Source of the DNA: an uncultured Caulobacterales bacterium
GTDB taxonomy: Bacteria; Pseudomonadota; Alphaproteobacteria; Caulobacterales; Parvularculaceae
DNA length: 64,000 nucleotides
Assembly (NCBI GenBank): GCA_964342855.1
Contig: CAYFIB010000013.1
Location: 1,352 to 65,351, forward strand
Direction of reading: 5' to 3'
Every line of letters starts with the position of its first letter. Positions within the stretch are counted from its first letter, which is position 1. A model generated the notes under the pieces. The model did not search any database, was not told the DNA's origin, and was given only the letters and a program-made list of their open reading frames with translations. Positions 6,614-50,772 of this stretch are shown here, piece by piece. The position numbers and the translations under genes were made by a program.

Positions 6614-6641
6614 GCGTTCGTGCGCCCTCAACGTAGAAGAA

Positions 6642-6669
6642 GCGCCGCCCGACCGGGCGGCGCTTTTTT
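6642..6669 (+). terminator. Rho-independent terminator after the M28 peptidase gene
   Basis: GCGCCGCCC-gacc-GGGCGGCGC followed by TTTTTT. Confidence 0.65.
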
Positions 6670-6680
6670 GTGGGGCGCGA

Positions 6681-7625
6681 TCAGGGAAGCGCGACCCGTT
6701 TCAGCGCGAACTGTTGCGGCGGTGTCGGATCGAAGCCGAACAGATGATCGAACTGGGACTGAACGACATAGGCGCTGTTCCTGTAGACCGCGACCGTCGT
6801 CGGCACATCGAGACCCGTCGCGATCGTCTCGACACGCCCCATGCCGCCCTCGAGGGTGATGATCGAGAGCGCGCCGGCGGTTCCCTCGACCACGAGAAGC
6901 GATCCATCATCGAGGCTCTCCAGCCCGTCCGGTCCCTGAAGTTTTCGATCCAGCGCGACCTCGTCGATATCGCCCGTTCGCGGTTCCACGCGGAAGAGAA
7001 GGCCCTCATTGTATTTCACGACATAGAGATCGCCGTTGAGGGTCGTCAGGCCATTGGTGTTGAACCCTTCGCCAGTCCAGCGCGGGCTTTGGGCGAGAAC
7101 CTGCAACTCTTCCGAGCCCGGCCTAAGGCGCAGCACGCGGCCGATGCCGGAGTCCGAAACGACGATCGTTCCGTCGCTCAGCTCGTAGATATCGTTGCAG
7201 AACCCGCCGCCCGGAAGCGGATAGCGCCCCGCCACGGCCCCGCTGTCAGCGTCGAAGGCGACCAGCTCGCTGGCGCGGCCGCCGTGGCTCTGGGTCGGAT
7301 CGGACGAGCAGGCGTAAACCGCTTCGCCGTCAAACGTCGCATAGACGCCGATGATCGACATGAGATCGGCGCCCCCGCCCGCAAACAGCGACATGGTCTT
7401 CGTCGCTCGGCTGAGACGATATATTTCGCCGCGCGCAATGGATCCGACATAGACGTCGCCGTCCGCGCCGACCGCGACGCCTTCCGGGTAGAAATCATCA
7501 TGCGGCAGCGCGATTTCGCCTTCGGCCGAGACTTCAAACGGCGTTCCGGGCGCGGCGCCGTCGCTCGCGCAACCGGCTCCCAGAAGCGCCAGAGCCGCGC
7601 TCGCGGCCAACGTTGCTTTCAACAT
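6681..7625 (-). CDS. Beta-propeller lipoprotein (SMP-30/gluconolactonase/NHL-like)
   Basis: Lipoprotein signal MLKATLAASAALALLGAGC. Repeated D/G-rich blades (PEGVAVGADGDVYVG, DGTIVVSDSG, NGDLYVV, DGSLLVVEG). Confidence 0.55.
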   Translation of the reverse strand: MLKATLAASAALALLGAGCASDGAAPGTPFEVSAEGEIALPHDDFYPEGVAVGADGDVYVGSIARGEIYRLSRATKTMSLFAGGGADLMSIIGVYATFDGEAVYACSSDPTQSHGGRASELVAFDADSGAVAGRYPLPGGGFCNDIYELSDGTIVVSDSGIGRVLRLRPGSEELQVLAQSPRWTGEGFNTNGLTTLNGDLYVVKYNEGLLFRVEPRTGDIDEVALDRKLQGPDGLESLDDGSLLVVEGTAGALSIITLEGGMGRVETIATGLDVPTTVAVYRNSAYVVQSQFDHLFGFDPTPPQQFALKRVALP

Positions 7626-7650
7626 GGTCGTTCTCCTTCAGATTCGACGA

Positions 7651-7935
7651 TCAAGCTTCGATGGCGAAAAGGTCGAAGCGCGCGCCGGTCTGACGCAGCT
7701 TGATGAGCGGCTGATGGTCCGGCGCCGCGTACCAGGCGCGGGCTTTCTCAAGGCTCGGAAAGCGGATGAGGACGATGCGGTCCGGCGCGGTCGCGGCGCC
7801 TTCAAGCCGCTCCGGCGCGGCGTTGGCGAGCACCTCGCCCTCAAAGCGCTGCAGAACCTCCGCAAGCCGCGGCCGGTATTCGCCCTGCCAGTCGGTGTTG
7901 GAAATGGTGAGATAGCCTATGGCGTATGCGGTCAT
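7651..7935 (-). CDS. DUF1330 domain protein
   Basis: ORF 7651..8019, with ATG at 7935 (MTAYAIGYLTISNTDW...IVLIRFPSLEKARAWYAAPDHQPL). Divergent from a LysR gene. Confidence 0.7.
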   Translation of the reverse strand: MTAYAIGYLTISNTDWQGEYRPRLAEVLQRFEGEVLANAAPERLEGAATAPDRIVLIRFPSLEKARAWYAAPDHQPLIKLRQTGARFDLFAIEA

Positions 7936-8030
7936 GTCGACCTCCCTTGTGAGTACTGACGGGAGGTAGCCGCTCGAACGCCTTGCAATAACTATCGACA
8001 AACGCACTTGACCGTGCATTTTTGCACGTC

Positions 8031-8894
8031 ATGGAAAACTGGGATGATCTCCGCTTCTTCCTCGCCGTCGCGGAAACCGGGGCCGTGACGGCCGCCGCGA
8101 CCGAGCTCGGCGTGAACCACTCGACCGTGTCGCGCCGGATCGGCGCGCTCGAGGCGGCCGCGGACGTGCGCCTCTTCGACCGGGCGCCGGAGGGCTATGT
8201 GCTGACGCAGGCGGGCCTCGCGCTGCTGGAGCGCGCCAAACCGCTCTCGGGCGCGTTCCATGAAGTGAGCCGCACCCTCGCCGCGCATTCGCCTACCATC
8301 GCCGGAGAGTTGAGCGTGACCGCGCCGCAGGCGGCCATGGTGCATGTCGTAATGCCCATGCTGCGCGGCTTTCGCCGTCAGTATCCTGAAATCCGGCTGA
8401 AGCTCGTCGCCTCCGACGATGTCAGCAATCTGCGGCGCCGCGAAACCGATGTGGCGATCCGCGCATGCAACGGGCCGGATGAATCGCTGGTGGGGCGGAA
8501 ACTCTGCGCCCAGAAGACCGCCGTCTACGCCGACCGGGACTATTGGGCGCGCCTCGACGGGGAGGACCCCGCCTGGATTTCACCCTCCTTGCGGCCGCAG
8601 ATACCGGAATGGGCGAAACGAACGTACCCGAACATGCGCGCCGGCGTCTGCGTCAACGGCAAGCTGGAGACGTTTGAAGCCGTGCGCGCGGGCCTCGGCG
8701 TCGCCCGTCTTCCCTGCCGTCTCGGCGGCTCGGCGGATAACCTCGTCCGCGTGCCGCCGGACGAGCCGGGCGCGGACCTTGATATCTGGCTGCTCATGCA
8801 CGCTTCGCTGCAGTCCGCCCCGCGCGTGCGCGCCTTCGCCGACTTCATCTACGAAGCCTTCAAAACCGAAGCGCCCCTGTTCGAAGGGCGTTGA
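8031..8894 (+). CDS. LysR-family transcriptional regulator
   Basis: MENWDDLRFFLAVAETGAVTAAATELGVNHSTVSRRIGALE, an N-terminal wHTH, followed by a LysR substrate-binding domain. Confidence 0.85.
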   Translation: MENWDDLRFFLAVAETGAVTAAATELGVNHSTVSRRIGALEAAADVRLFDRAPEGYVLTQAGLALLERAKPLSGAFHEVSRTLAAHSPTIAGELSVTAPQAAMVHVVMPMLRGFRRQYPEIRLKLVASDDVSNLRRRETDVAIRACNGPDESLVGRKLCAQKTAVYADRDYWARLDGEDPAWISPSLRPQIPEWAKRTYPNMRAGVCVNGKLETFEAVRAGLGVARLPCRLGGSADNLVRVPPDEPGADLDIWLLMHASLQSAPRVRAFADFIYEAFKTEAPLFEGR

Positions 8895-8898
8895 GGCC

Positions 8899-9903
8899 TC
8901 AGGCCGGGTCCGCCCCGCCGGAGGCCGGCGCCGCCTCGGCCGGTTTGGCGCCGCCGAAGCCCGGCACGAAATCGCGCGCTTTCGCTGTCAGCTCGCGGAA
9001 TTTATCGGACGCGCCTTCAAGGCGCTGCTCCCATTCCGGATCCGGCTGCTGGTCCGCCGTTTTCTTGAAGAAGACCTGCATCAGCGAGAACATGGCGATG
9101 GGCTCTATCAGCGCCGCCTTGGTCGACCAGGCGAGCACGAAGGCGATGACGAACGACCAGAAGCCGATATCGCCCGGAATCAGCGCCATGATCGCGAACG
9201 TCGGCGCGAGCATGACGACGAAGATGAGAAGCGTCAGCCCCCACATCATCAGGGAGAGCCAGACCGCGTTCTTCACGAAGCTCTTGTAATTCTGTCCGTA
9301 GAGGACAAGCGCCTCGCGCGCTGAGGCCCAGGTGTTGTCCGAGTTCGTACGTAGGGCGTGGGCGAGAATAATCTCGTCGACATATTCCAGCGACATGCGG
9401 ATGACCGCGCTCACCATCTTCATGATGTTCTGCAGCCCCGGGATCGGCAGGATGAACGCAACGCCGCCAAGAATGCGCGTGATCGCTTTCAGAACGCCCT
9501 TCACCAGTTGATCGACCGCGAAGAGAAGCGAGGCGTCGGCGAACTTCGCCTGCACGATATCCTTCGCATACGTCACCTGCCCTTTTCCTTCCGGCAGCGG
9601 CTCCTGATCATAGAGCTTCACCAGTACGGCGATGTGTCCGGCCTTTACGACGTAGAGGATGTATTCGCGCAGGAAATAGAGAACGCCCGAGGCGCCGGCG
9701 AAGCCGAAAAGCGCGCCATAGAAGGCGCCGCCGCCCTCCCCTTCGCCGAAGGAGGTGAAGCCGTAACCGATGGCGCCGCCCCCGCCGGTCGCAAGAATAT
9801 AGAGAATGGCGATGCCGAAATAGACGGCGATCCGCGTCAGAATGAACGGCGTCGTCTTCACCATCGCCGCAATCGACTGCGACAGACTGAAATCCCAACC
9901 CAT
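8899..9903 (-). CDS. Multi-pass membrane protein of unknown function
   Basis: 334 aa. Several hydrophobic helices, a Gly-rich loop (TGGGGAIGYGFTSFGEGEGGGAFYG), and a soluble Pro/Ala/Gly-rich tail. I recognise no family. Confidence 0.5.
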   Translation of the reverse strand: MGWDFSLSQSIAAMVKTTPFILTRIAVYFGIAILYILATGGGGAIGYGFTSFGEGEGGGAFYGALFGFAGASGVLYFLREYILYVVKAGHIAVLVKLYDQEPLPEGKGQVTYAKDIVQAKFADASLLFAVDQLVKGVLKAITRILGGVAFILPIPGLQNIMKMVSAVIRMSLEYVDEIILAHALRTNSDNTWASAREALVLYGQNYKSFVKNAVWLSLMMWGLTLLIFVVMLAPTFAIMALIPGDIGFWSFVIAFVLAWSTKAALIEPIAMFSLMQVFFKKTADQQPDPEWEQRLEGASDKFRELTAKARDFVPGFGGAKPAEAAPASGGADPA

Positions 9904-10027
9904 TGTTCCGGCCTCCTCTCAGAACGATTCCAGCACCGTAAAACGAAACGGTGGGACGAAGCCACCGCAGACGGAGATATCGTTCATATGCGCGCGACGC
10001 CTTGACCTCTTCTCTTGCGAACGGTCG

Positions 10028-10939
10028 CTAACGCGCTCTGTGCTCCGCCATCAGTCTTGCGAGTTCCTCCGCGAGCATGTCGTAAACCAAACGTATACGC
10101 CGACTGGTGTGCAGCTCCCGGTGCGTGACGAGCCAGACCGGCACCGGCACCGGCGGAAACTCCGGGTAAACAAGCTCCAGCTCCGGATAGAGATCCGCCA
10201 TGTCTTCCGTCAGGAACGTCAATCCGACGCCCGCCCGGGCGAGCGCGATCAACATGGTGCCGCTCGCCGTCATGGCGGCGATCTGCTCTTCCCCGGTCGA
10301 CAGCCCGAGGCTTTCGAAAAGATTGAGCACGCGATCAGGAGCGTCGAACGCCAGCGTCGGCATCGCGGATACTTCCTGTACGGATTTCGGCCTGCCGTGA
10401 GTGTCCAGAAAATCTTTCGAGGCGTACATCCGGGCCGTGGTTTCGCCGATCAGCTTGCCGATGAGATTGGGCTGTTCCGGCCTCGCATGCCGGATGGAGA
10501 TGTCGGCCTCCCGCTTCGTCAGATCCTGCACGGCGTTCGAAGTGATGACGTTCACGCGAACGCCGGGCGCCTCCTTCTGAAGACGCAGAAGCACCGCAGG
10601 CAGATAAAGCGTCGCAAAAACGTTGGTGGCCGTGACGCTGACCCAGCCGGTCACCGCTTCGGAGCGCCCCGTCGCCGCGAACGAGACGCGCGACGCCGCC
10701 TCCCCCATGGCCCGAACGTGCTCCAGCACCTCGCGCCCCGCTTCAGTGAGATACAGCGATTTCGCTCCGCGCTCGAACAGAACGACGCCCAGCGCGTCTT
10801 CAAGGCCGGCTACCTGACGGCTGACAGTCGGCTGGGTCAGCTTCAGGGCGCGCGCCGCGGCGGACAGCGAGCCTTCCTCCGCTGACGCCAGGAACGCGCG
10901 GACCTGATTCCAGTCAAAAGAGATCGTGTCCCATTTCAT
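10028..10939 (-). CDS. LysR-family transcriptional regulator
   Basis: ATG at 10939: MKWDTISFDWNQVRAFLASAEEGSLSAAARALKLTQPTVSRQVAGLE. Confidence 0.85.
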   Translation of the reverse strand: MKWDTISFDWNQVRAFLASAEEGSLSAAARALKLTQPTVSRQVAGLEDALGVVLFERGAKSLYLTEAGREVLEHVRAMGEAASRVSFAATGRSEAVTGWVSVTATNVFATLYLPAVLLRLQKEAPGVRVNVITSNAVQDLTKREADISIRHARPEQPNLIGKLIGETTARMYASKDFLDTHGRPKSVQEVSAMPTLAFDAPDRVLNLFESLGLSTGEEQIAAMTASGTMLIALARAGVGLTFLTEDMADLYPELELVYPEFPPVPVPVWLVTHRELHTSRRIRLVYDMLAEELARLMAEHRAR

Positions 10940-10967
10940 GCATATTCGCATACCTGATCCAGATTTT

Positions 10968-10986
10968 TTCGCAATTTCTATCCGAA
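10968..10986. promoter_or_regulatory. Candidate LysR T-N11-A box (TTCG-N11-CGAA) in the divergent intergenic region
   Basis: TTCGcaatttctatcCGAA lies between the LysR gene and the methyltransferase genes. If real, the methyltransferase start is more likely ATG 11038 than 10987. Confidence 0.25.
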
Positions 10987-11811
10987 ATGCGTATGGGCGA
11001 ATATCCCGGCGTCGCCTGTAGGGAACGCCACGTTCGAATGACGAGCCACGATGTCTCCGAATCCATTCCGATGCTGTCCGGATCGATCGGCTCGTGGCGG
11101 CTGTCGCTCAGCCGGACGCCGCGCGCTGCGTTCGATCTCGGCCGTCAGTACGATGCGAAAGCGAAGCGCTGGTCTTCCAGGCTGGAGCGGATGGGCGTTC
11201 ACGCCGCATATCGCGAATGCTGGCGTGCACTGCTGGACGAGCAGCTGAACCTCCCGCTCGGGCGCGCGATACGCGTTCTTGACTGCGGCGTCGGCGACGG
11301 CGCCTTCTCGCGAGCGTTTTGCACGGTCTGGTCAGGCGGCCTTGATCTTCATGGCGTCGACGTCTCCGAGGTGATGTTGACCGAGGCTCGATCGCGCTTG
11401 GAAGCCGTCGGCGTTCACGCGACGCTCTGGCGCTCGGATGCGTGCGACCTTCCCTTTGAAGACGGGTTCTTCGATCTCGTCTTCTCCGCACACATGCTGG
11501 AACACCTCCCATCTCCCCAGCGGGCGCTGTCGGAAATGCGACGCGTGCTCGCGCCCGGCGGCGCGGCGGTCGCGGTCGTGACGCGCCGCTCTGCGCCGGG
11601 CCGGCTTGTGCAGGTTAGATGGCGCACGCACGTATTCGACCCGCGTCAGGCCGGCAGGCTGATGGCGGAGAGCGGCTTCGATTCGCTCGGGTGTCTCCCG
11701 CCGACCGGTCGCTCCATCTTCGACAGTCTGAGCCTCACCTGCTACGGGCGAAAACCGCCCTATCAGCGTGCAGGTCTCCCGCAGCCTGAAACGAAAGAAG
11801 ACCATACATGA
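10987..11811 (+). CDS. Class I SAM-dependent methyltransferase
   Basis: SAM motif I VLDCGVGDGAFS. Later blocks FDLVFSAHMLEHL and VLAPGG. The start is uncertain (10987, 11038 or 11071). Confidence 0.7.
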   Translation: MRMGEYPGVACRERHVRMTSHDVSESIPMLSGSIGSWRLSLSRTPRAAFDLGRQYDAKAKRWSSRLERMGVHAAYRECWRALLDEQLNLPLGRAIRVLDCGVGDGAFSRAFCTVWSGGLDLHGVDVSEVMLTEARSRLEAVGVHATLWRSDACDLPFEDGFFDLVFSAHMLEHLPSPQRALSEMRRVLAPGGAAVAVVTRRSAPGRLVQVRWRTHVFDPRQAGRLMAESGFDSLGCLPPTGRSIFDSLSLTCYGRKPPYQRAGLPQPETKEDHT

Positions 11812-12431
11812 AGAACGAGGAGACTTTCTGGGACAGGCTGGCCGACAAATACTTCAAGGAGCCGATCAAGGATCAGGACGCGTATGAAAAGAAGCTGCGC
11901 CTGACGCAGGCGCTTTTCACGCCCGATACGGATGTATTCGAGTTCGCCTGCGGCACCGGCGGAACGGCCCTGCGCCACGCACCTTATGTAAGAAGCGTTC
12001 ACGCCACGGATTTTTCAAGCGAGATGATCCGGATCGCCCGCGCTCAGGCCGACAGCCTCGGCGTGTCGAACGTAACCTTCGAGCAAGCCGACATCACGCG
12101 GCATGACGCGGGGCGCGAGCGCTATGACGTCGTCCTTGGCATGAGCATCCTGCACCTGTTGCGCGAGCCCGAGCGCGTCGCCTCCCGGGTGCATGACTGG
12201 CTGAAACCGGGCGGTTCTTTCGTCTCCAGCACTGTCTGTCTGGGCGACAGCATGGCGTGGATCCGCTTTATCGCGCCGATCGGCCGGGCTCTGGGGAAAA
12301 TGCCGTACGTCAATGTCTTCAAGGCCGCGGAGCTCCGATCGTTCCTGCTGCGCGCGGGGTTCGAGATCGAGACGGAGTGGCGGCCCGAGAAGAGCCCGGC
12401 CGTCTTCATCATCGCCCGAAAGCCCGGCTAG
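11808..12431 (+). CDS. Class I SAM-dependent methyltransferase (second, translationally coupled)
   Basis: ATGA overlap with the upstream gene. Motif I VFEFACGTGGTA, YDVVLGMSILHLL, LKPGGSF. Confidence 0.75.
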   Translation: MKNEETFWDRLADKYFKEPIKDQDAYEKKLRLTQALFTPDTDVFEFACGTGGTALRHAPYVRSVHATDFSSEMIRIARAQADSLGVSNVTFEQADITRHDAGRERYDVVLGMSILHLLREPERVASRVHDWLKPGGSFVSSTVCLGDSMAWIRFIAPIGRALGKMPYVNVFKAAELRSFLLRAGFEIETEWRPEKSPAVFIIARKPG

Positions 12432-13915
12432 GGTCGCTCCTCCGCCGCCGTCGCCTCGACCGGCGCGGACGCCGTCTCGCCGCCCGCCGGAAGCCCCGAG
12501 CGGATGTGCAGATCGCGCTGCGGGAACGGGATTTCGATGCCTTCCGCTGCGAAGCCGTCCCAGATTTTCATGAGGACTTCGGAGCGGACATTGGCGATGC
12601 CGCGCTGGGGGTCGTTGATCCAGAAGCGCAGGTCGAAGTCGACGCTGGAGTCGCCGAAGCCCATCAGATTGCAGACGGGTTCGGGGCGCGCGAGCACGCG
12701 GTCGGTCGACTTCGCCGCCTCGCGGCAAATCTCCTGCACGCGGCGGAGGTCCTTCGTTCCGTAGGCGACGCCGACCGGCGCGTGGATGCGCACGTCCCGG
12801 TCCGCATGCGACCAGTTGACGACGCCCTCCTCCATGAAGGTCGCGTTCGGCACCAGATGCTCCGTGCCGTCGCGCGTTCGGATGGAGACGTAGCGGGCCT
12901 TCATGTCGGTGATCCAGCCGAAGGTCTCGCCCACGGCGACGACGTCTCCGGGCTTGATCGAACGGTCCGCCAGAAGCGTGAACCCGGCGAGGAAGTTCGA
13001 GATGATCTTCTGCAGGCCGAGACCGATGCCGAGACCGACGGCGCCGGAGAAAATGGCGAGGCTCGCGAGATTGAAGCCGATGATCTGCAGGGCGAAGAGA
13101 AGCGCGACGACCGGCAGCGCGAAGTTCAGCACCTTCGCGATCAGCGCCTTGAAGGACGGGTTCAGCTCCTCGACCCTGTCGACCCGGTTGACGATCAGCC
13201 CCGAGACGAGCCCCGCGAGCTGCATGAAGACGGCGAATACGATCCCTGCCCGCACGACATCAAGCAGGGTGAGCCGCACCGCGTCGCGATCGTCCGTCGG
13301 CGGCGAGAGCTGGACGGAGATCGTCTCCAGCCAGGTGATCACCTCGTCCAGCAGATGGAACGCGTCGAGCGCCGCGATCGGCCAGGCGATGTAGAAAGCG
13401 ACCTTCGACCAGAACGGCGAGCGGATGGCGAGCGTGACGAGACGCACCACGATCCACGCCGTCAGCAGGCTGAGCGCCGCGGAGACGAACCCGCGATTCG
13501 CGCCGGCGCTGATGAACCCCGCCTCAGCGCCCGTCAGGATGACCCACGCGGCGATGGGCGTCGCGAGCGTCGCCGCGGCGTCCGCGAGACGGCGGAGGAT
13601 GCCAGCGGGCGCCCGCTGGCGCAGATGCCGGGCGATGAAGTTCTTCAGGCGCGGGCCGAACAGCACCGCCGGGATGATCGCGCCGAAAACGACGGAGATC
13701 TGGATCGCGGAGTTGATCGTAAGAAGCTCGGTGCGCGTCCAGTCGATCCCGGCCTGAAGCCAGCGGTTGAGGCGTTCGGCGTTCAGGAGATCCGTCTCGA
13801 CGAGGTCGGCGATGGCGGAGCGGTCGCCGTCTGTCGGCGGAGCGGCCGGCTCCGCCGCGGGCGCCTCAGGCGGCGTTTCCTGCGGGGCGTCCTGACGCCA
13901 GAGGGTCTCGATCAT
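12428..13915 (-). CDS. MscS-family mechanosensitive channel
   Basis: ORF 12428..14035, with ATG at 13915 (MIETLW). MscS core: GLGLQKIISNFLAGFTLLADRSIKPGDVVAVGETFGWITDMKARYVSIRTRDGTEHLVPN. Confidence 0.85.
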   Translation of the reverse strand: MIETLWRQDAPQETPPEAPAAEPAAPPTDGDRSAIADLVETDLLNAERLNRWLQAGIDWTRTELLTINSAIQISVVFGAIIPAVLFGPRLKNFIARHLRQRAPAGILRRLADAAATLATPIAAWVILTGAEAGFISAGANRGFVSAALSLLTAWIVVRLVTLAIRSPFWSKVAFYIAWPIAALDAFHLLDEVITWLETISVQLSPPTDDRDAVRLTLLDVVRAGIVFAVFMQLAGLVSGLIVNRVDRVEELNPSFKALIAKVLNFALPVVALLFALQIIGFNLASLAIFSGAVGLGIGLGLQKIISNFLAGFTLLADRSIKPGDVVAVGETFGWITDMKARYVSIRTRDGTEHLVPNATFMEEGVVNWSHADRDVRIHAPVGVAYGTKDLRRVQEICREAAKSTDRVLARPEPVCNLMGFGDSSVDFDLRFWINDPQRGIANVRSEVLMKIWDGFAAEGIEIPFPQRDLHIRSGLPAGGETASAPVEATAAEERP

Positions 13916-14039
13916 CTCCGCTCCTCGCCGCTGACGGGCGTTCTTCACCGATAGACCATCGAACCTAGAGCGAATCGCGGCGCCAGCGAGGCGGCGCCCT
14001 TCCGCTCGCGCCCGGCGCGCGCTATTCCTCCCCACCGCC

Positions 14040-14115
14040 GCCGGCTTAGCTCAGCTGGTAGAGCATCTGATTTGTAATCAGGTGGTCGGGGGTTCGAGTC
14101 CCTCAGCCGGCACCA
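14040..14115 (+). tRNA. tRNA-Thr (anticodon TGT), CCA encoded
   Basis: Hand-folded cloverleaf: acceptor GCCGGCT/AGCCGGC, D stem GCTC/GAGC, anticodon stem TCTGA/TCAGG with loop TT-TGT-AA, T arm GGGGG-TTCGAGT-CCCTC, ACCA tail. Confidence 0.9.
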
Positions 14116-14342
14116 TTTTCACCCGATTAATCTCTGACAGTAACAGTCTTAGAGAACCCGCTCAGGCCGCTGATGGATGTCTTCGCGCGGTCAGCTCTGC
14201 TTTTCGCGAACGCCGCCGCGAAATCCGCCTCAAATCATCACCTTAGATTTCCGGTGAAAATCTCCGTTTAAAATCTCTTTTGCAGAGCTTTAAAATTTAT
14301 GCCGTACGAACCGCTCTTCAGTTTGGGGAGTGCGCTAAGAAC

Positions 14343-16577
14343 ATGTTCTTGTTCAACAAAATCAAAAAATCGGAAGATGTAACCGAGGACGCCGGGTTCG
14401 CGTTTTGCGCGTTTGACAACGCCTCTCTCCCCATGATCATGACCGACCGGGAGATGAAGATCTTCCGGCTTAACGCCGCGGCGGCTGAATTAGCGCGTAA
14501 ACATGCCGACGCCTTCCGCGACGCTGATCGGGAATTCAACGCCGACGACCTGATCGGGCGCGATCTCGGCTTTCTGGCGGGCGATCTATCGCACGTGCGC
14601 GGCGCGCTCAGCGACCCGCATTCTCTGCCGATGACCATTGAAACGACGGTTGGTTCGTCTGTGTTCAAACTGGTCTTCAGGCCCGCCGTCATCGGCGGCG
14701 CAAGTGCTGGCGCGATCGTGGAATGGACCGACATTACCGGCGCCGGTCGAAACACGCCCGTCGTCGCCGCGCTGAACCGCTCGCAGGCCGTCATCGAATT
14801 CACGCCGGACGGCGTCATTCTGTCTGCAAACGATATTTTCCTCGCCGCTCTCGGCTATGCGCGCGATGACGTCATCGGCAAGCATCACAGCCTGTTCGTC
14901 GCCCCCCGCGAAACCGGCGCGCCGGCTTACAAAGAGTTCTGGGCGGCGCTCGGCCGCGGCGAGTTCCAGAGCGGCGAGTTTCGACGCGTCACCAAAACCG
15001 GCGAGGATCTCTGGATACAGGCGTCCTACAATCCCATCGTCGACAAGGACGGTCGGGTCACCAGCGTCATCAAGTTCGCCTCGGACATCACCGCGCAGAA
15101 GAAAAAATCCATCGACGACGACGGCAAGCTCGCCGCCGCCAGTCGCTCGCAGGCGATGATCGAGTTTGATCCGTCCGGCGTCATTCTCGATGCAAACGAA
15201 AATTTCCTGTCGGTGATGGGCTACAGCCTCGACGAGATCGTCGGCAAACACCACAGCATGTTCGCGGATCCGGCCGAAGCGGGAAGCGCGGAGTACCAGC
15301 AATTCTGGCAGAAGCTCAGGGCCGGCGAGTTCCAGATCGCCAAATACCGCCGCGTCGGAAAAGGCGGCAAAGAGATCTGGATCCGCGCCTCCTACAACCC
15401 GATCCTCGACGCCGACGGCAAGACGTACAAGGTCGTGAAGTTTGCGACCGACGTCACGCAAGACGAACTCAATGGACGCAAGCGGGCCCAGGAGCAGGAG
15501 ACTATCGTCACCAATCTCGCGATGGGGCTCAGCGCCCTCGCCGAGGGCCGTCTGACGGTGCGTATCGAGACGAAATTCGCGGACGAATACGACAAACTTC
15601 GCGAGAACTTCAATGACTCCGTCGCACGCCTCCAGGACGCGATGAACACCGTCGCTGAAACGGCGAACGGCATGGCGAACGGCGTTGATGAAATCGCCCG
15701 GTCTTCGGACGATCTTTCGAAGCGGACGGAGCATCAGGCTGCGACGCTGGAAGAGACCGCGGCGGCTCTCGACGAGATCACCGCCACCGTCAAACAGACG
15801 GCGGAAAGCGCCAGCGAGGCGAATTCGGTCGTCAGCGAGACGAACGCCGACGCGACGAAGAGCGGCGAAGTCGTGCGTGAGGCGGTCTCCGCCATGGGCG
15901 AAATCGAGAAGTCTTCCGATCAGATTTCGCAGATCATCGGCGTCATCGATGAAATTGCGTTCCAGACGAACCTTCTGGCGCTGAACGCGGGCGTCGAGGC
16001 CGCTCGCGCAGGCGACGCCGGGCGCGGCTTCGCGGTCGTCGCGCAGGAAGTCCGCGCGCTGGCGCAGCGGTCGTCGGAAGCGGCGAAAGAGATCAAGGGG
16101 CTTATCTCCGACAGCTCCGAACACGTCAAATCCGGGGTCGATCTGGTCGGGCGGACCGGCGAGGCGCTAACCGCCATCGTTGGTCGCGTGGACAGCATCA
16201 GCACGCTGGTACGCGAAATCGCCAAGTCCGCTCAGGAACAATCGACGAGCCTTGGCGAAGTGAACGGCGCCATGAACCAGATGGACGAAGTCACTCAGCA
16301 GAACGCCGCTATGGTGGAAGAAGCGACCGCCGCCGCGCAATCGCTCGGCGACGACGCCAGCACGTTGCGCAGTCTGCTTGGCCAGTTCGAGCTCTCGTCC
16401 CATCAGGCGCCGACAAGCGCCCGGGCCGTCCGCCCGGAGACGTCGGTCGCGCCTGCGAAGCAGCCGGAGGTGCGCCGTCAGCAATCGGCCGTTGAAAACT
16501 TCGCTGCTCAGCGTCCCGTCCGGCAAAGCGGCGGCGCGGCCGCGGCGGCGGTCGAAGACGACTGGAGCGAGTTTTAA
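14343..16577 (+). CDS. Soluble methyl-accepting chemotaxis protein with tandem PAS domains
   Basis: ORF 14280..16577, with ATG at 14343. No hydrophobic segments. Two clear PAS repeats ([26 protein letters not shown].. and [26 protein letters not shown]..) plus an N-terminal PAS-like region. MCP signalling hairpin [41 protein letters not shown]-terminal pentapeptide DWSEF. Confidence 0.85.
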
Positions 16578-16615
16578 GGACCGGCGGGCCCGCCGCCTTC
16601 AAGGTCTGACGACAT

Positions 16616-16690
16616 CACCCGAACCGTCACCGACGCGGCGTCACCCGCCGCGTCGACGACGCTAACCTCGTAGAAGCCAGCCGCTGCGGG
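16616..16690 (-). pseudogene. Relic of the 3' end of a pbpC-like (PBP1C C-terminal domain) gene
   Basis: Own translation gives PAAAGFYEVSVVDAAGDAASVTVRVM. The intact PbpC C-terminus in this window (48772..) reads PAGVGFYEVSVVDREGNVASVNVRVF, so 17 of 26 residues are identical. An in-frame TAG lies immediately upstream (16696-16694). There is no start and no upstream domains. Confidence 0.5.
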
Positions 16691-16711
16691 GCGCTATTCC
16701 TCCCCACCGCC

Positions 16712-16787
16712 CCCGGCTGAGCTCAGCCGGTCGCGCATCAGATTTGTAGCCAGGTGGTCGGGGGTTCGGGTCCCTCAGCCGGCGCCA
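16712..16787 (+). pseudogene. Degenerate copy of tRNA-Thr(TGT)
   Basis: 66/76 identical to the tRNA at 14040..14115 and preceded by the same 21-nt flank (gcgctattcctccccaccgcc). The substitutions break pair 1-72, one D-stem pair and two anticodon-stem pairs, and change U8, A21 and A58. Confidence 0.65.
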
Positions 16788-17154
16788 CTGGTTTCAGATC
16801 TCAGTCTCCGCTCAGACCGCCAAAGTTAGATGACGTCGTCCCGTCGCGTTCCATTGGGCGTCATGCTTTTCTGCCCCCCAGGCGCTTTCGTTTGATCACC
16901 GAAGCATGGGCGTGGAGCTGGATCGCGCGACTTCCGTTCCAGCCGCAGTAAACGCACGGCCTTCATGTCGCTTATTCGCCACAATGGCGCTTGGCGCAGA
17001 TGTCGCATCTTTCGTTTTTCGAATCTTCTGTTAACGATGTCGGTGTGCAGCGCACATCCCGTGCGCGCCTCGCGACGCCGCGTGCCCACGCTGTGGCTGC
17101 TCGCACGGGCTTGAGATTTCGCCCGCACCGCAAAAAAACCGAGGGGACACGTAC

Positions 17155-19602
17155 GTGACCAAATTCATGACCGGCGCATCGTCGATCGCCGTGCTTTCCA
17201 TGCTTTCCGCACCCGCATACGCGCAGGACGCCGAGCCGCGCCGTTCGCTCGACCAGATCGTCGTCACCGCGACGAAAACCGAGACGACCGCGCAGGACGC
17301 CGCCGTCGCGCTGCAGGCCGTCGATGAAGAAACGCTCGACGAACTGAACATCGGCAATTTCGACGACTATGTGCGTTATCTGCCGAACGTCTCCTTCGGC
17401 GGCCGGGGCCCGGGCCAGTCCACGGTCTATATCCGCGGCCTCGCGGTGCAGCCGATCACCGTCCTCCTCTCCGGCGCGCAGGGCACCACGCCGAACGTCG
17501 CGCTCTATCTCGACGAACAGCCGGTGACGGCGCCGGGCCGGAATCTCGACGTCTACGCGACCGATCTGGAGCGCATCGAAGTCCTGCCGGGACCGCAGGG
17601 CACGCTCTTCGGCGCGAGCTCCCAGGCGGGCACCATCCGCCTCATCACCAACAAGCCGAAGCTGAACGAGTTCCAGGCGGGCTTCGACGCCTCGGTCGCG
17701 ACCACCAATGACGGCGAACTTTCCAATGGCGTGGAAGCCTATGTGAACATTCCGCTCATTGAGGATAAGCTCGCGGTGCGCGCCGCGTTCTACAACATCT
17801 CCGAGGGCGGCTACATCGACAATGTTCAGGGCACGTTTACGACGGACCCGTCGATCAACCCGGACTCACAGGCGACCGCCAGCGCGGTGAGCTATGAAGC
17901 GGCGGACAACGCCCTCCTTGTCGAAGATAACTTCAACGACAGCGGCTATGAAGGCGTGCGTCTCAGCGGTCTGTTCCAGATCAACGACGACTGGAGCTTC
18001 AGCCTTCAGCACACGCAGCAGAAACTGACGGCCGACGGCGTCTTCGACTACGATCCGACGGTCGGCGACCTCGACGTGACGCGCTTCTTCGAAGACACCC
18101 TTGAAGACGAGTTCGGTCAGACCGCGTGGACGCTGGAAGGCCGCCTCGCCATGCTGGATCTGGTGTACACGGGCGCCTATCTCGACCGCGAGGTCAATCA
18201 GTCGGTCGATTATACGGGCTACAACAACTCCGGCGCATTCATCTCGTATTACACGTGTACGTATGATAACCCGGCTTATGTTGTGAATTACGGTATCGAC
18301 CCGTCCTTCGTCACGCCGGGCGGCCGCGAATGTCTCGACCCGACCAAAGGCGCGGTCATCTTCCAGGAGCACGCGCGCAACACGCACGAATTCCGCTTCT
18401 CCACGCCGTCCGATTACCGTCTCCGCCTGATCGCGGGCGTCTTCTATGACGACTTCGAGATTGAAACGCAGGACGACTATTACTACCTCGCCGCGCCGCA
18501 ACTCGGCTTCGCGCCGAACGCGCCGATCTCCACCGCCGTGCAGGTGAACCCGGCGACACGGCCGGCGGGCGTCGCCTTCTTCAACGATATTCGCCGCACG
18601 GAGAAACAGCTCGCCTACTTCGGCGAGCTCGCCTTCGATCTCGTTCCGAACGTCCTGACCGTCACGGGCGGCCTGCGCTACTACGAGATCGAGTCCGACT
18701 TTGAAGGCTCCTCCAACTTCGCGAACGGCATTTTCGCCGGCTCGGTCGATGGCGACAGCGGCCGCGATTACGACGTCTCCGGCGGTCACACGCCGGAACC
18801 GCTCGAAAATGACGACATCATCATCAAGGCGAACATCAGCTGGACGCCGACGGACGATGTTCTGTTCTTCTTCACGTACTCGGAAGGCTTCCGTCCGGGC
18901 GGCTTCAACCGCGGCGGCGGCCTCGCGTCCGCCAATCCGGCCTTCCCGACGGTCGACACCTTCTATGACACCGATGACGTCCAGTCCTATGAGCTGGGCT
19001 GGAAGAGCCAGCTCTTCGCCAACACGCTACAGTTCAACGGCTCGGCCTATTTCATCGAGTGGACGGACATGCAGGTCTCCCGCTTCGACCCGCAGAACGT
19101 CTCGATCCTGACGTTCATCGAGAACGCTGCGGACTCCGAGATCTTCGGCGTGGAAGGCGACGTGGTCTGGGCGGCGACGGACGGACTGACGCTGTTCGGC
19201 GCATTTTCGTACAACGACACCGAGGTGACCGATGTGAGCGCGCAGGTGATCGACCTCGCCCCGGTCGGGTCGGAGCTGCCGTTGGTGCCGAAATTCCAGT
19301 TCGCCGCACGCGCGCGTTATGAGGCGCCGGTCGGACCTTATCTCGGCTACGTTCAGGCGGGCGTTCAGTACGCGGGCAAGAGCTTCTCCTCGCTGGTCGC
19401 CGCCGTGCGTGAAGAGCAGTCGAGCTACACCACCGCCGACATGTCGGTCGGCGCGTCTCGCGATCAGTGGTCGGCGGAGATCTTCGTGGAAAACCTGACC
19501 GATGAGCGCGCCGAGCTGTTCATCAACGATCAGGACGATATTCGTCGGATCGCGACAAACCGTCCGCGCACGGTTGGCCTTCGGGTGTCGTTTGACTACT
19601 AG
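17155..19602 (+). CDS. TonB-dependent outer-membrane receptor
   Basis: Signal peptide ending AYAQD, TonB box DQIVVTATK, plug and barrel motifs, C-terminal RTVGLRVSFDY. GTG start at 17155 (ATG 17164 is an alternative). Confidence 0.85.
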   Translation: MTKFMTGASSIAVLSMLSAPAYAQDAEPRRSLDQIVVTATKTETTAQDAAVALQAVDEETLDELNIGNFDDYVRYLPNVSFGGRGPGQSTVYIRGLAVQPITVLLSGAQGTTPNVALYLDEQPVTAPGRNLDVYATDLERIEVLPGPQGTLFGASSQAGTIRLITNKPKLNEFQAGFDASVATTNDGELSNGVEAYVNIPLIEDKLAVRAAFYNISEGGYIDNVQGTFTTDPSINPDSQATASAVSYEAADNALLVEDNFNDSGYEGVRLSGLFQINDDWSFSLQHTQQKLTADGVFDYDPTVGDLDVTRFFEDTLEDEFGQTAWTLEGRLAMLDLVYTGAYLDREVNQSVDYTGYNNSGAFISYYTCTYDNPAYVVNYGIDPSFVTPGGRECLDPTKGAVIFQEHARNTHEFRFSTPSDYRLRLIAGVFYDDFEIETQDDYYYLAAPQLGFAPNAPISTAVQVNPATRPAGVAFFNDIRRTEKQLAYFGELAFDLVPNVLTVTGGLRYYEIESDFEGSSNFANGIFAGSVDGDSGRDYDVSGGHTPEPLENDDIIIKANISWTPTDDVLFFFTYSEGFRPGGFNRGGGLASANPAFPTVDTFYDTDDVQSYELGWKSQLFANTLQFNGSAYFIEWTDMQVSRFDPQNVSILTFIENAADSEIFGVEGDVVWAATDGLTLFGAFSYNDTEVTDVSAQVIDLAPVGSELPLVPKFQFAARARYEAPVGPYLGYVQAGVQYAGKSFSSLVAAVREEQSSYTTADMSVGASRDQWSAEIFVENLTDERAELFINDQDDIRRIATNRPRTVGLRVSFDY

Positions 19603-48771: not shown

Positions 48772-50772
48772 CTAGGATTGGGTCTCAAATACCCGGACGT
48801 TCACGGAGGCGACATTCCCCTCTCGGTCAACCACGCTGACCTCGTAGAAGCCGACCCCTGCGGGCCGCCATTCCGCGCGACCGCCGACGTCGACGAGCGG
48901 CGCTCCGTTTACATACCAGTTGAGACCGGCGCCGCGACCCGCCAGAACGACCGGGCGACCGCTGGCGCGGTGGAGCGGCAGCTCCGCCCCCTCCGATGGA
49001 AAAACGATGCGCGGGCCCGTGACGGAGCTGACGGCGGCGCTGACCCAAGGCGCCGGCGGCGCGGGGGCGTCCGTTCCTCCGCGTTCGTTGGGCAGAATAT
49101 CGAACAGGCGCCTCAGCAACGGCGCCGCGGCTTCAAGGCCCGTCGCGCCCGGTCGCGGCGTCCCGTCCGCACGACCGACCCAGACCACCACCACGTAGCC
49201 GCCGCCGACGCCCGCGGCCCAGGCGTCCCGAAAACCCCAGGACGTGCCCGTCTTTATGGCGACGCGCGGCCCATCCGCCGACAGGGCCGAGGGCGCGCGG
49301 CCCGACGGCGACGGCGCGTCGATCAGGATGCGGCGCACTTTCGCGGCGGCGGCGTCGCTCATAACGGCGTATCCGTCGCTCTCTCCGCCCTTTTCCGTCC
49401 AATGGAGAGGCGCCGTCGCCCCCTCTCCCGCCAGCGCGGTGTAGAGGAGCGCTAGATCGGACAAGGAAAGCCCCGCCCCGCCGAGGGCGACCGGCAGCCC
49501 CGCGCGTCCGTCCGTTGATGGCGGAAGATCAAGCGGCGCGCCCGCGGCGTCCAGTTGCGCGGCGAAGCGCTCCGCGCCGACGCGGCTGAGGAGATCGACC
49601 GCCGGCACATTGAGGGAATGGCGAAGCGCGTCGCGGGCGGAAAGATCGCCCTGGTGCGTCCGGTCGAAGTTTTCCGGCGCATACGTCCCGAACGCTTCGG
49701 GCCGGTCGTGCAGGGTCGTCTCCGGCGCCGCGACGCCTGCATCAAACGCCATGGCGTAGATGAAGGGTTTGAGCGTGGAGCCCGGCGAGCGCGAGGCCGC
49801 GGTCAGGTCCACCCACCCGCCCGGCCGGTCACGACCCGCCGAGCCGACATGCGCACGCACGGCGCCGCTCGCCGCCTCGACGATCAGCGCCGCCGCCTGC
49901 ACCTCGTCCCCTTCCAGGAGCGCGTGACTGCGGACGATCTCTTCAGCGATGCGCTGAAGGTTCGCGTCGAGCGTGGAGCGGGCTTCGGTTGACGCAGCCT
50001 CAGCGAGGGCGCGTCGGGCGCCAGCGTCGGCCATCTGCGGAAAATCGCGGCGGCGCGGCGCAGGCGCGGAGAGAAGCGCGGCGCGGCTTTCGTCTGTCAG
50101 CATACCGACCGCTGCGAGGCGTTCACCGATGCGCGCCCGGGCGGCGCGGGCCGCATCCGGGCGACGGTCCGGGCGCCGCGCCTCGGGGGCCTGCGGCAAA
50201 GCGATGAGCAGCGCCTCCTCGGCCGGGTCGAGGTCCGCAGGCTCCTTGCCGAAATAAGCGAGGCTTGCGGCGCGCACGCCCTCCAGATTGCCGCCATAGG
50301 GCGTGAGGGTGAGGTAGAGCTCCAATATCTCCCGCTTCGAGAGCCGCGCCTCGATCTGCAGCGCCCGGAGCGCCTCAATGAACTTGGAGCCGATGGTGCG
50401 CGGGCGCGGCTCCAGAAGCCGCGCCGTCTGCATGGTGATGGTTGAAGCGCCCGAGGTGACGCGCCCGGCGCGAACGCCATCCGCCGTCGCGCGCGCGACG
50501 GCGAGCGGGTCGACGCCCCAATGGGAGTAGAAGCGCGCGTCTTCGACAGAGATCAGGCGTTCGATAAACTCCGGATCAAGATCATCGAGTTTCGCGGGGA
50601 GGCGCCAGCGTTGTTCGCTGTTCGAGTAGGCCGCCAGCGGTCGTCCTTCACGATCCAGGACAAGGGAGGAGACGTCCCCCGCCCGTTCGATCGGCGGCGG
50701 GAGCGCGCGGTCGAGGGCGACGACCATCAGGACGACGCCAAGCGCCGCCAGGATCGCGCCTCTCAACCTCAC
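48772..50772 (-). CDS. pbpC: Penicillin-binding protein 1C (transglycosylase/transpeptidase)
   Basis: GT51 motifs (SVEDARFYSHWGVDP, GASTITMQ). Transpeptidase motifs SPGSTLKPF, SLN and KTGTS. BiPBP_C-like C-terminus. Confidence 0.85.
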   Translation of the reverse strand: MRLRGAILAALGVVLMVVALDRALPPPIERAGDVSSLVLDREGRPLAAYSNSEQRWRLPAKLDDLDPEFIERLISVEDARFYSHWGVDPLAVARATADGVRAGRVTSGASTITMQTARLLEPRPRTIGSKFIEALRALQIEARLSKREILELYLTLTPYGGNLEGVRAASLAYFGKEPADLDPAEEALLIALPQAPEARRPDRRPDAARAARARIGERLAAVGMLTDESRAALLSAPAPRRRDFPQMADAGARRALAEAASTEARSTLDANLQRIAEEIVRSHALLEGDEVQAAALIVEAASGAVRAHVGSAGRDRPGGWVDLTAASRSPGSTLKPFIYAMAFDAGVAAPETTLHDRPEAFGTYAPENFDRTHQGDLSARDALRHSLNVPAVDLLSRVGAERFAAQLDAAGAPLDLPPSTDGRAGLPVALGGAGLSLSDLALLYTALAGEGATAPLHWTEKGGESDGYAVMSDAAAAKVRRILIDAPSPSGRAPSALSADGPRVAIKTGTSWGFRDAWAAGVGGGYVVVVWVGRADGTPRPGATGLEAAAPLLRRLFDILPNERGGTDAPAPPAPWVSAAVSSVTGPRIVFPSEGAELPLHRASGRPVVLAGRGAGLNWYVNGAPLVDVGGRAEWRPAGVGFYEVSVVDREGNVASVNVRVFETQS

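Follow-up and report, generated by a model that had tools for sequence, protein, structure and literature searches.

The DNA examined here, referred to throughout as the window, is a 64,000-nt stretch of contig CAYFIB010000013.1 (positions 1,352 to 65,351, forward strand) from the assembly GCA_964342855.1 (G000) of an uncultured marine Caulobacterales bacterium of the family Parvularculaceae, and the element under study is a direct repeat that carries a gene for tRNA-Thr(UGU). The repeat is 97 nt long and occurs at 14019-14115 and 16691-16787. Each copy joins a 21-nt flank, hereafter F21 (GCGCTATTCCTCCCCACCGCC; 14019-14039 and 16691-16711, plus strand), to a 76-nt tRNA body (14040-14115 and 16712-16787, plus strand). 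Between the two lie a chemoreceptor gene with its leader and, on the minus strand, a relic of a second pbpC gene that overlaps the F21 of the second copy. A spacer and the gene of a TonB-dependent receptor (TBDR) follow on the right.

A repeat finder recovered the pair as a single family, with 87 of 97 positions (90%) identical and a start-to-start spacing of 2672 nt. F21 is identical at all 21 positions and the tRNA body differs at 10 of 76, the longest identical runs between the copies being 21, 18, and 14 nt. The block, the unchanged flank, and the 10 differences had been given in a preliminary description of this DNA, and both the repeat finder and direct reading agreed with it; the genome search that it had proposed returned 2 occurrences of the 97-nt block in the 3.26-Mb, 117-contig assembly, and all remaining matches were other tRNAs. 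Independently assembled ENA, Tara, and Logan data of the species contain the same two-copy structure at 99.95 to 100% identity, which rules out an assembly artifact. Since the copies no longer share an identical run above 21 nt, recombination between the repeats can now hardly remove the chemoreceptor gene.

The upstream copy (copy 1) is the sole functional tRNA-Thr(UGU) gene of the genome. ARAGORN made one tRNA call in the window, tRNA-Thr(TGT) at 14040-14115, and 38 calls genome-wide, with one Thr gene each for UGU, GGU, and CGU. Copy 1 scored 72.8 bits against the Rfam tRNA model (RF00005), folded into a cloverleaf-like structure (z = -3.67), and was 100% identical to the tRNA-Thr of G001, the sole other species of the genus. 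A stretch upstream of it (CGCCCTTCCGC...CCCGGCGCGC) is common to the upstream region of the G001 tRNA-Thr and is also present on a contig of Logan run ERR15087775, L057, from the closest relative, whose MscS-type channel is 93% identical to that of G000. Global alignment of about -60 to -22 between copy 1 and G001 scored 16, against a shuffle mean of 7.9 (SD, 1.9; p of about 0.001), and the same comparison made upstream of copy 2 gave no such similarity to the G001 region. Copy 1 therefore sits in the native promoter context, and the segment at 13995-14018 (plus strand, about -45 to -22), judged by its similarity to G001, is the putative native promoter region of the gene. F21 of copy 1 is 20/21 identical in L057, and G001 shares just its first 7 nt, GCGCTAT. 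Homology between the copy 1 trailer and that of G001 was also considered; it was not significant (p = 0.10), and a native trailer is not claimed.

The second copy (copy 2; 16712-16787, plus strand) is a pseudo-tRNA-Thr that keeps the anticodon TGT and differs from copy 1 by G1>C, U8>G, U17>C, A21>C, A23>C, U29>A, A38>G, U39>C, A58>G, and A73>G. Since the tRNAs of G001 and L057 equal copy 1 (in L057, 74 nt of the tRNA are present and identical), copy 2 has the derived state at every one of the 10 positions. As predicted in the preliminary description, copy 2 fails as a tRNA: ARAGORN made no tRNA call there, the Rfam score fell to 24.3 bits, under the gathering score of 29, and the minimum-energy fold was not a cloverleaf and was no better than that of shuffled sequence (z = -0.18). 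In the cmscan alignment, the broken pairs are 1-72, one in the D stem, and two in the anticodon stem, exactly the four that had been listed as destroyed. The conserved tertiary nucleotides U8, A21, and A58 are altered (U8>G, A21>C, and A58>G), as is the discriminator base (A73>G); these changes, like the retained anticodon, had been noted before and were read directly from the sequence.

The substitutions have a clear direction. Eight of the 10 are A/T to G/C, the count from which drift had first been proposed, and 9 of the 10 hit A/T positions, of which the tRNA has 31 (binomial p of about 0.002), so that the G+C content of the tRNA rises through them from 59% to 70%; that of the genome is 64%. 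This pattern fits relaxation, or neutral drift, of a released tRNA gene toward genomic G+C. Copy 2 is most likely silent and nonfunctional, its probable silence following from the missing upstream promoter region. Its decay of 13% compares with a divergence of about 20% between G000 and L057 in the spacer separating mscS from the tRNA (25 of about 125 non-tRNA positions), which suggests that the duplication event is about as old as the split between these two lineages.

Two of the substitutions have a further consequence: with U8>G and U17>C, tRNA positions 2-19 (16713-16730) have become a perfect 18-nt palindrome, CCGGCTGAGCTCAGCCGG, and the predicted fold is dominated by it. Copy 2 might on this account be a functional element, either a 3'-terminal signal for processing or stability of the chemoreceptor mRNA or a promoter or operator of the TBDR operon, with CCGGCTGAGCTCAGCCGG possibly active; its flank is unchanged, and every assembly of the species has the element in the same form. 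We consider such a role highly improbable. The palindrome was recognized post hoc, at a p of about 0.01 to 0.02, the stability of the fold is like that of shuffled sequence, and no Rfam family scored above threshold. The conservation is confined to one near-clonal population, so the invariance carries no weight, and the substitutions are those of neutral drift toward genomic G+C.

Immediately to the left of the pseudo-tRNA lies a segment (16598-16711, minus strand) that corresponds to the last ~37 codons of a second pbpC and whose last 21 nt are the flank of copy 2. The resident pbpC of the window is at 48772-50772 on the minus strand and encodes a class A penicillin-binding protein, a cell-wall enzyme, with Transgly, Transpeptidase, and BiPBP_C domains. 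Positions 16617-16711 are 75% identical to 48791-48885 over 95 nt, with a local alignment score of 73 against 22 ± 2.4 for shuffles, and in tblastn, residues 630-664 of the resident PbpC matched 16711-16607 with 63% identity (E = 1.7e-8). The minus-strand translation of the relic reads GGGEE*RPAAAGFYEVSVVDAAGDAASVTVRV, where the resident PbpC has GGRAEWRPAGVGFYEVSVVDREGNVASVNVRV, and fits the C-terminal motif GGxxxW-RP..GFY that 29 PbpC orthologues of the family have. The relic is homologous to the C-terminal BiPBP_C domain of PbpC, and it is classed as a pseudogene fragment because it has an in-frame stop and just ~37 codons are left.

The pbpC homology is gap-free and continues in register through F21 up to where the pseudo-tRNA starts. 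No further pbpC remnant was found beyond copy 2, in the spacer at 16788-17154. On the other side, the stop of the chemoreceptor gene and the stop of the relic frame overlap on opposite strands at 16573-16600 (TTTTAAGG) and are followed by a palindrome, GGCGGGCCCGCC. The two thus look like a compact convergent pair with a shared hairpin, and the overlapping stops are as expected if an old convergent pair was cut out together. Neither a chemoreceptor gene nor a tRNA was found beside pbpC in 30 PbpC loci of the family, and no pbpC was detected in G001 at an E value of 1e-60 or below.

Within the relic, F21 matches the resident pbpC at 16 of 21 positions in register and encodes GGGEE*R, the codons GGC GGT and GAA being identical and TAG standing for TGG. 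Matches to F21 of at least 16/21 occur genome-wide at a rate of 8.9e-6 per site, 58 sites in total. The in-register fit can be taken to mean that F21 is genuine pbpC coding sequence. A tRNA copy would then have been joined by its first base to a truncated pbpC, and a short conversion patch, starting at the common heptamer GCGCTAT and reaching the tRNA, would later have copied the flank in front of copy 1, making the context of copy 2 the older one for the flank. The matching codons, the TAG at a TGG position, and the agreement of the relic with the GGxxxW-RP..GFY motif all favor a pbpC origin; moreover, over its last 14 nt, the flank agrees with pbpC at 11 of 14 positions and with the G001 leader at only 6 of 13, and a flank of 21/21 beside a tRNA difference of 13% is what a more recent conversion would leave. 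We regard this sequence of events as unlikely and rank it lower, since it needs two rare events and, in addition, the chance sharing of a heptamer between the relic and the native -10 region, where G001 has it too. The G001 leader has diverged too far to inform (p = 0.19), L057 already has the flank before its tRNA, so that any conversion must be old, and the conversion tract would have had to end just short of tRNA position 1, at which the copies differ.

The interval between the copies (14116-16690) holds just the chemoreceptor gene and the pbpC stub, and Pfam searches showed no integrase, integrase fragment, transposase, or other mobility gene in it. An AT-richer leader with promoter-like hexamers (14116-14342, plus strand; 227 nt) has a G+C content of 48.5%, against 64% for the genome, and contains TTTAAA-N18-TAAAAT at 14267-14296, a putative promoter by consensus match. 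The gene that follows (14343-16577, plus strand) encodes a 744-amino-acid cytoplasmic chemoreceptor of the PAS-HAMP type, a methyl-accepting chemotaxis protein (MCP) that ends in DWSEF. In Pfam searches it matched MCPsignal (5e-56), PAS three times (strongly at two places and weakly near the N terminus), and, again weakly, HAMP. The AT-richer leader and single PAS-containing MCP gene of the preliminary description are thus both present.

A foreign composition of this DNA was considered and rejected, as the G+C content and the G+C content at third codon positions (GC3) of the MCP gene resemble those of its neighbors (GC3 of 0.79, against 0.78 to 0.90). The nearest relative of this MCP is a paralogue encoded by G000 itself, on contigs C39 and C62, with 58% amino acid identity. 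The closest foreign proteins reach at most about 61% identity over part of their length among the database matches listed, which also include no MCP homologue at about 62 to 99% identity, and clusters at 90% identity contain this species only. No MCP was found in G001 at an E value of 1e-30 or below. The G000 genome has at least five MCP loci, and chemoreceptor paralogues stand at the contig ends of C39 (21724-23628), C62 (11839-12294), and C99, where the assembly breaks in the conserved MCP signaling domain.

On the right, a spacer (16788-17154, plus strand), in which no Rfam family scored above threshold, precedes the TBDR gene (17155-19602, plus strand; Pfam Plug and beta-barrel), the first gene of a conserved series of TBDR, TPR-sulfotransferase, BCCT, and MarR genes. 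Its G001 orthologue has 79% amino acid identity and is followed by the same genes. On the left, copy 1 has as its neighbor an MscS-type channel gene at 12428-13915 on the minus strand. The frame of mscS, tRNA-Thr, and TBDR that had been proposed for comparison did not prove to be conserved. Synteny with G001 gives instead a backbone of YceI, YceI, CDF, M28 peptidase, tRNA-Thr, variable DNA, TBDR, TPR-sulfotransferase, and BCCT, and mscS lies in a lineage-only 7.4-kb block. In G001, the tRNA-Thr begins about 50 nt past the M28 stop. The 12.3 kb between it and the orthologous TBDR hold other genes, namely aminotransferase genes, one of the nitrilase family, and another TBDR/sulfotransferase pair that is very divergent. 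Two features are specific to G000 in this comparison, the chemoreceptor module with the pseudo-tRNA after the tRNA and the 7.4-kb block, which lies past M28 and before the tRNA promoter region. In G001, tRNA-Thr(UGU) is present once, there is no chemoreceptor module, and different genes come next, so that a conserved functional tandem, the arrangement that would have spoken against decay, was not encountered.

In relatives whose TBDR is 77 to 81% identical in amino acid sequence, the TBDR module is kept, its upstream neighbors are unrelated, and no tRNA or pseudo-tRNA was found there. The junction between tRNA and TBDR is rearrangement-prone, because G001 and these TBDR relatives carry different neighboring genes at it. 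As a synteny anchor, mscS was tried and set aside: orthologues with 47 to 70% amino acid identity are present in 110 of 121 family genomes, and the 19 best loci have no adjoining tRNA. The adjacency of mscS and tRNA-Thr is kept just in contig L057, which ends inside the tRNA.

Several other features of the surroundings were recorded. The 7.4-kb block (6614-13994) contains eight genes, namely two hypotheticals, a DUF1330 gene, two LysR regulators, two methyltransferases, and mscS, and the heptamer GCGCCCT is found at both of its edges (6625-6631 and 13997-14003). On contig C22 of G001 (L034, 9825-13866), the second TBDR and TPR-sulfotransferase have 24 to 31% amino acid identity to the genes of the window. 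An intact 387-amino-acid tyrosine integrase of the P4 type (Arm-DNA-bind_3, Phage_int_M, and Phage_integrase) is encoded at 1-311 on the minus strand and continues to about position 370 of the contig (C13:370). ARAGORN found no tRNA adjoining this integrase, which is more than 13 kb from the tRNA-Thr, with G001-syntenic backbone genes between.

An intact tRNA, accessory DNA, and a distal direct repeat together form the layout of a tRNA gene (tDNA) island; the Islander paper (PMC4383910) describes such islands as lying between an intact tDNA and a fragment of it that has been displaced. The likeness extends to accessory DNA that starts at the 3' end of the functional tRNA and is closed by a tRNA direct repeat at a variable site. 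The locus could accordingly be read as the remnant of a classical integrase island, in which an element whose attachment site (attP) carried a whole tRNA-Thr, with the pbpC stub beside it, would have integrated site-specifically into tRNA-Thr, the integrase and most of the cargo would later have been deleted, and the MCP would remain with copy 2 as attR. The right border of the repeat lies exactly at the tRNA 3' end, the DNA after the tRNA-Thr differs between G000 and G001, and the intact P4-type tyrosine integrase is encoded on the same contig. That integrase, however, is on the 5' side, beyond the G001-syntenic backbone genes, and the interval itself holds no integrase, integrase fragment, or other mobility gene. 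The repeat is the whole tRNA plus its 21-nt 5' leader rather than a 3' fragment, and a crossover at an att site within the tRNA would have kept the chromosomal leader in front of copy 1. The composition is native, with a same-genome paralogue as the best MCP relative, and, unlike in tDNA islands, a single gene makes up the cargo and a stub of a housekeeping-type gene is fused to the distal repeat. Three defining features, namely the lack of an integrase, a repeat other than a 3' fragment, and the native composition, exclude a classical att pair, in agreement with the argument made when the repeat was first described; the island-remnant account with a whole tRNA in its attP is, in our estimate, quite unlikely.

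The preliminary description had proposed a segmental duplication or a recombination scar in place of an att pair. Of these, the scar is retained and the plain segmental duplication is not. The DNA that follows the two copies is unrelated, since local alignment of the leader (14116-14342) with the spacer (16788-17154) scored 21, against 17.9 ± 2.4 for shuffles. This excludes a plain tandem duplicate, unless there was a second deletion that stopped precisely at the 3' end of the tRNA. The register of the flank with the pbpC relic likewise argues for illegitimate recombination rather than plain segmental duplication. Left of the join the sequence is pbpC, from -21 on it equals the leader of the tRNA, and the 21-mer resembles the two, as expected of illegitimate recombination at a short look-alike. 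Overall, we favor, with a probability of roughly 0.6, the interpretation that the locus is a scar of recombination without an integrase, at a variable site linked to a tRNA. From the one distant congener available for comparison, we infer that the MCP interval is an insert.

The scar could have arisen as follows. The tRNA-Thr(UGU) would have stood at a rearrangement-prone junction, with M28 upstream and variable DNA and then the TBDR operon downstream, and the starting order would have been tRNA-Thr, leader, and MCP, with a convergent second pbpC behind. Short-homology illegitimate recombination between the 21-nt leader of the tRNA and a look-alike 21-mer at codons ~630-636 of pbpC would then have joined the pbpC 3' stub to a second leader and tRNA copy. 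In the route that we favor, this event would have released a 2.67-kb circle carrying the tRNA, leader, MCP gene, and pbpC stub, and the circle would have entered, by homologous, Campbell-type recombination through the 97-bp block, a variant in which the tRNA directly preceded the TBDR spacer. The left border of the repeat would be the point at which the circle closed, and the right border would be the tRNA 3' end, where strain-variable DNA starts; the two-step route thus accounts for both borders. The distal copy, with a leader that lacks the native promoter region, would have been redundant, drifted toward genomic G+C, and lost function. Both the direction and the route of the event are what we infer from this arrangement. 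A tandem duplication later trimmed by deletion, or a template switch during replication, is a possible alternative that would give the same end product.

Several observations weigh against the recombination scar and this route. An empty site, with the tRNA followed directly by the TBDR spacer, was not found among the relatives examined, nor was a donor arrangement of tRNA, MCP, and full second pbpC. The circle would require transfer between cells. The origin of F21 is ambiguous, because its in-frame fit to pbpC (GG..E.W) could mean that it derives from pbpC coding sequence, in which case an extra gene-conversion step would be needed. Finally, 0 of 21 flank positions and 10 of 76 positions of the tRNA body have changed, a contrast with a p of about 0.05 under uniform decay that could hint at later homogenization or constraint. 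This contrast is only weakly unlikely, and a special explanation is unnecessary. With respect to empty-site or circle variants, the species assemblies show the same structure or consist of contigs that break in the tRNA or the PAS repeats. A metagenome scan for the junction of flank and tRNA gave 6 matches, none similar to the window, and these were dismissed as chance.

tRNA genes are classic landing sites for foreign DNA, and the usual account is that a site-specific integrase leaves a partial 3' repeat of the tRNA. Williams is said to have described in 2002 a sublocation preference of islands within the genes for tRNA and transfer-messenger RNA. Flexible tRNA-adjacent islands that are diversified by homologous recombination occur in Alteromonas and Prochlorococcus, and in 2017 Oliveira et al. 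reportedly described integrase-free transfer hotspots beside tRNA genes. The present locus resembles such hotspots in its anchors, M28 and tRNA-Thr on one side and TBDR on the other, in gene content that varies by relative, and in the absence of mobility genes. It differs in that the anchor tRNA, usually not duplicated at hotspots, is duplicated here and so records the recombination event. In Salmonella and Escherichia coli, join points of tandem duplications are reported by Reams and Roth to form by short-homology illegitimate recombination and to be remodeled by deletion. The novel junction seen here likewise lies between look-alikes (the leader and the pbpC 21-mer, 16/21), and the 2.67-kb unit contains a whole gene; unlike at such join points, the DNA after the second copy is unrelated to that after the first. 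A literature search on full-length tRNA repeats at islands found nothing specific. What is new here is the pbpC relic in register with the flank of copy 2, together with the backbone established by comparison with G001.

A scar at a variable tRNA-linked site is fairly ordinary, and no long-standing open question is touched by it. The join is preserved inside the pbpC stub, however, so that the crossover can be read almost to the base, and the locus provides a clean example of recombination alone building small tRNA-linked islets. It also cautions against annotating direct tRNA repeats as att sites by default. The locus also dates the pseudo-tRNA and shows the G+C-biased decay of a released tRNA gene. 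A wider suggestion, which we offer as tentative and on balance doubtful, is that whole tRNA genes with a few leader bases serve as integrase-free homologous handles, by which circles move single accessory genes between strains at tRNA hotspots. Circles excised illegitimately would keep the tRNA and enter the same tRNA gene of another strain by RecA-type recombination, after which the spare tRNA would decay, and the present locus would be one example. If true, this would be a general, so far undescribed route for moving accessory genes.

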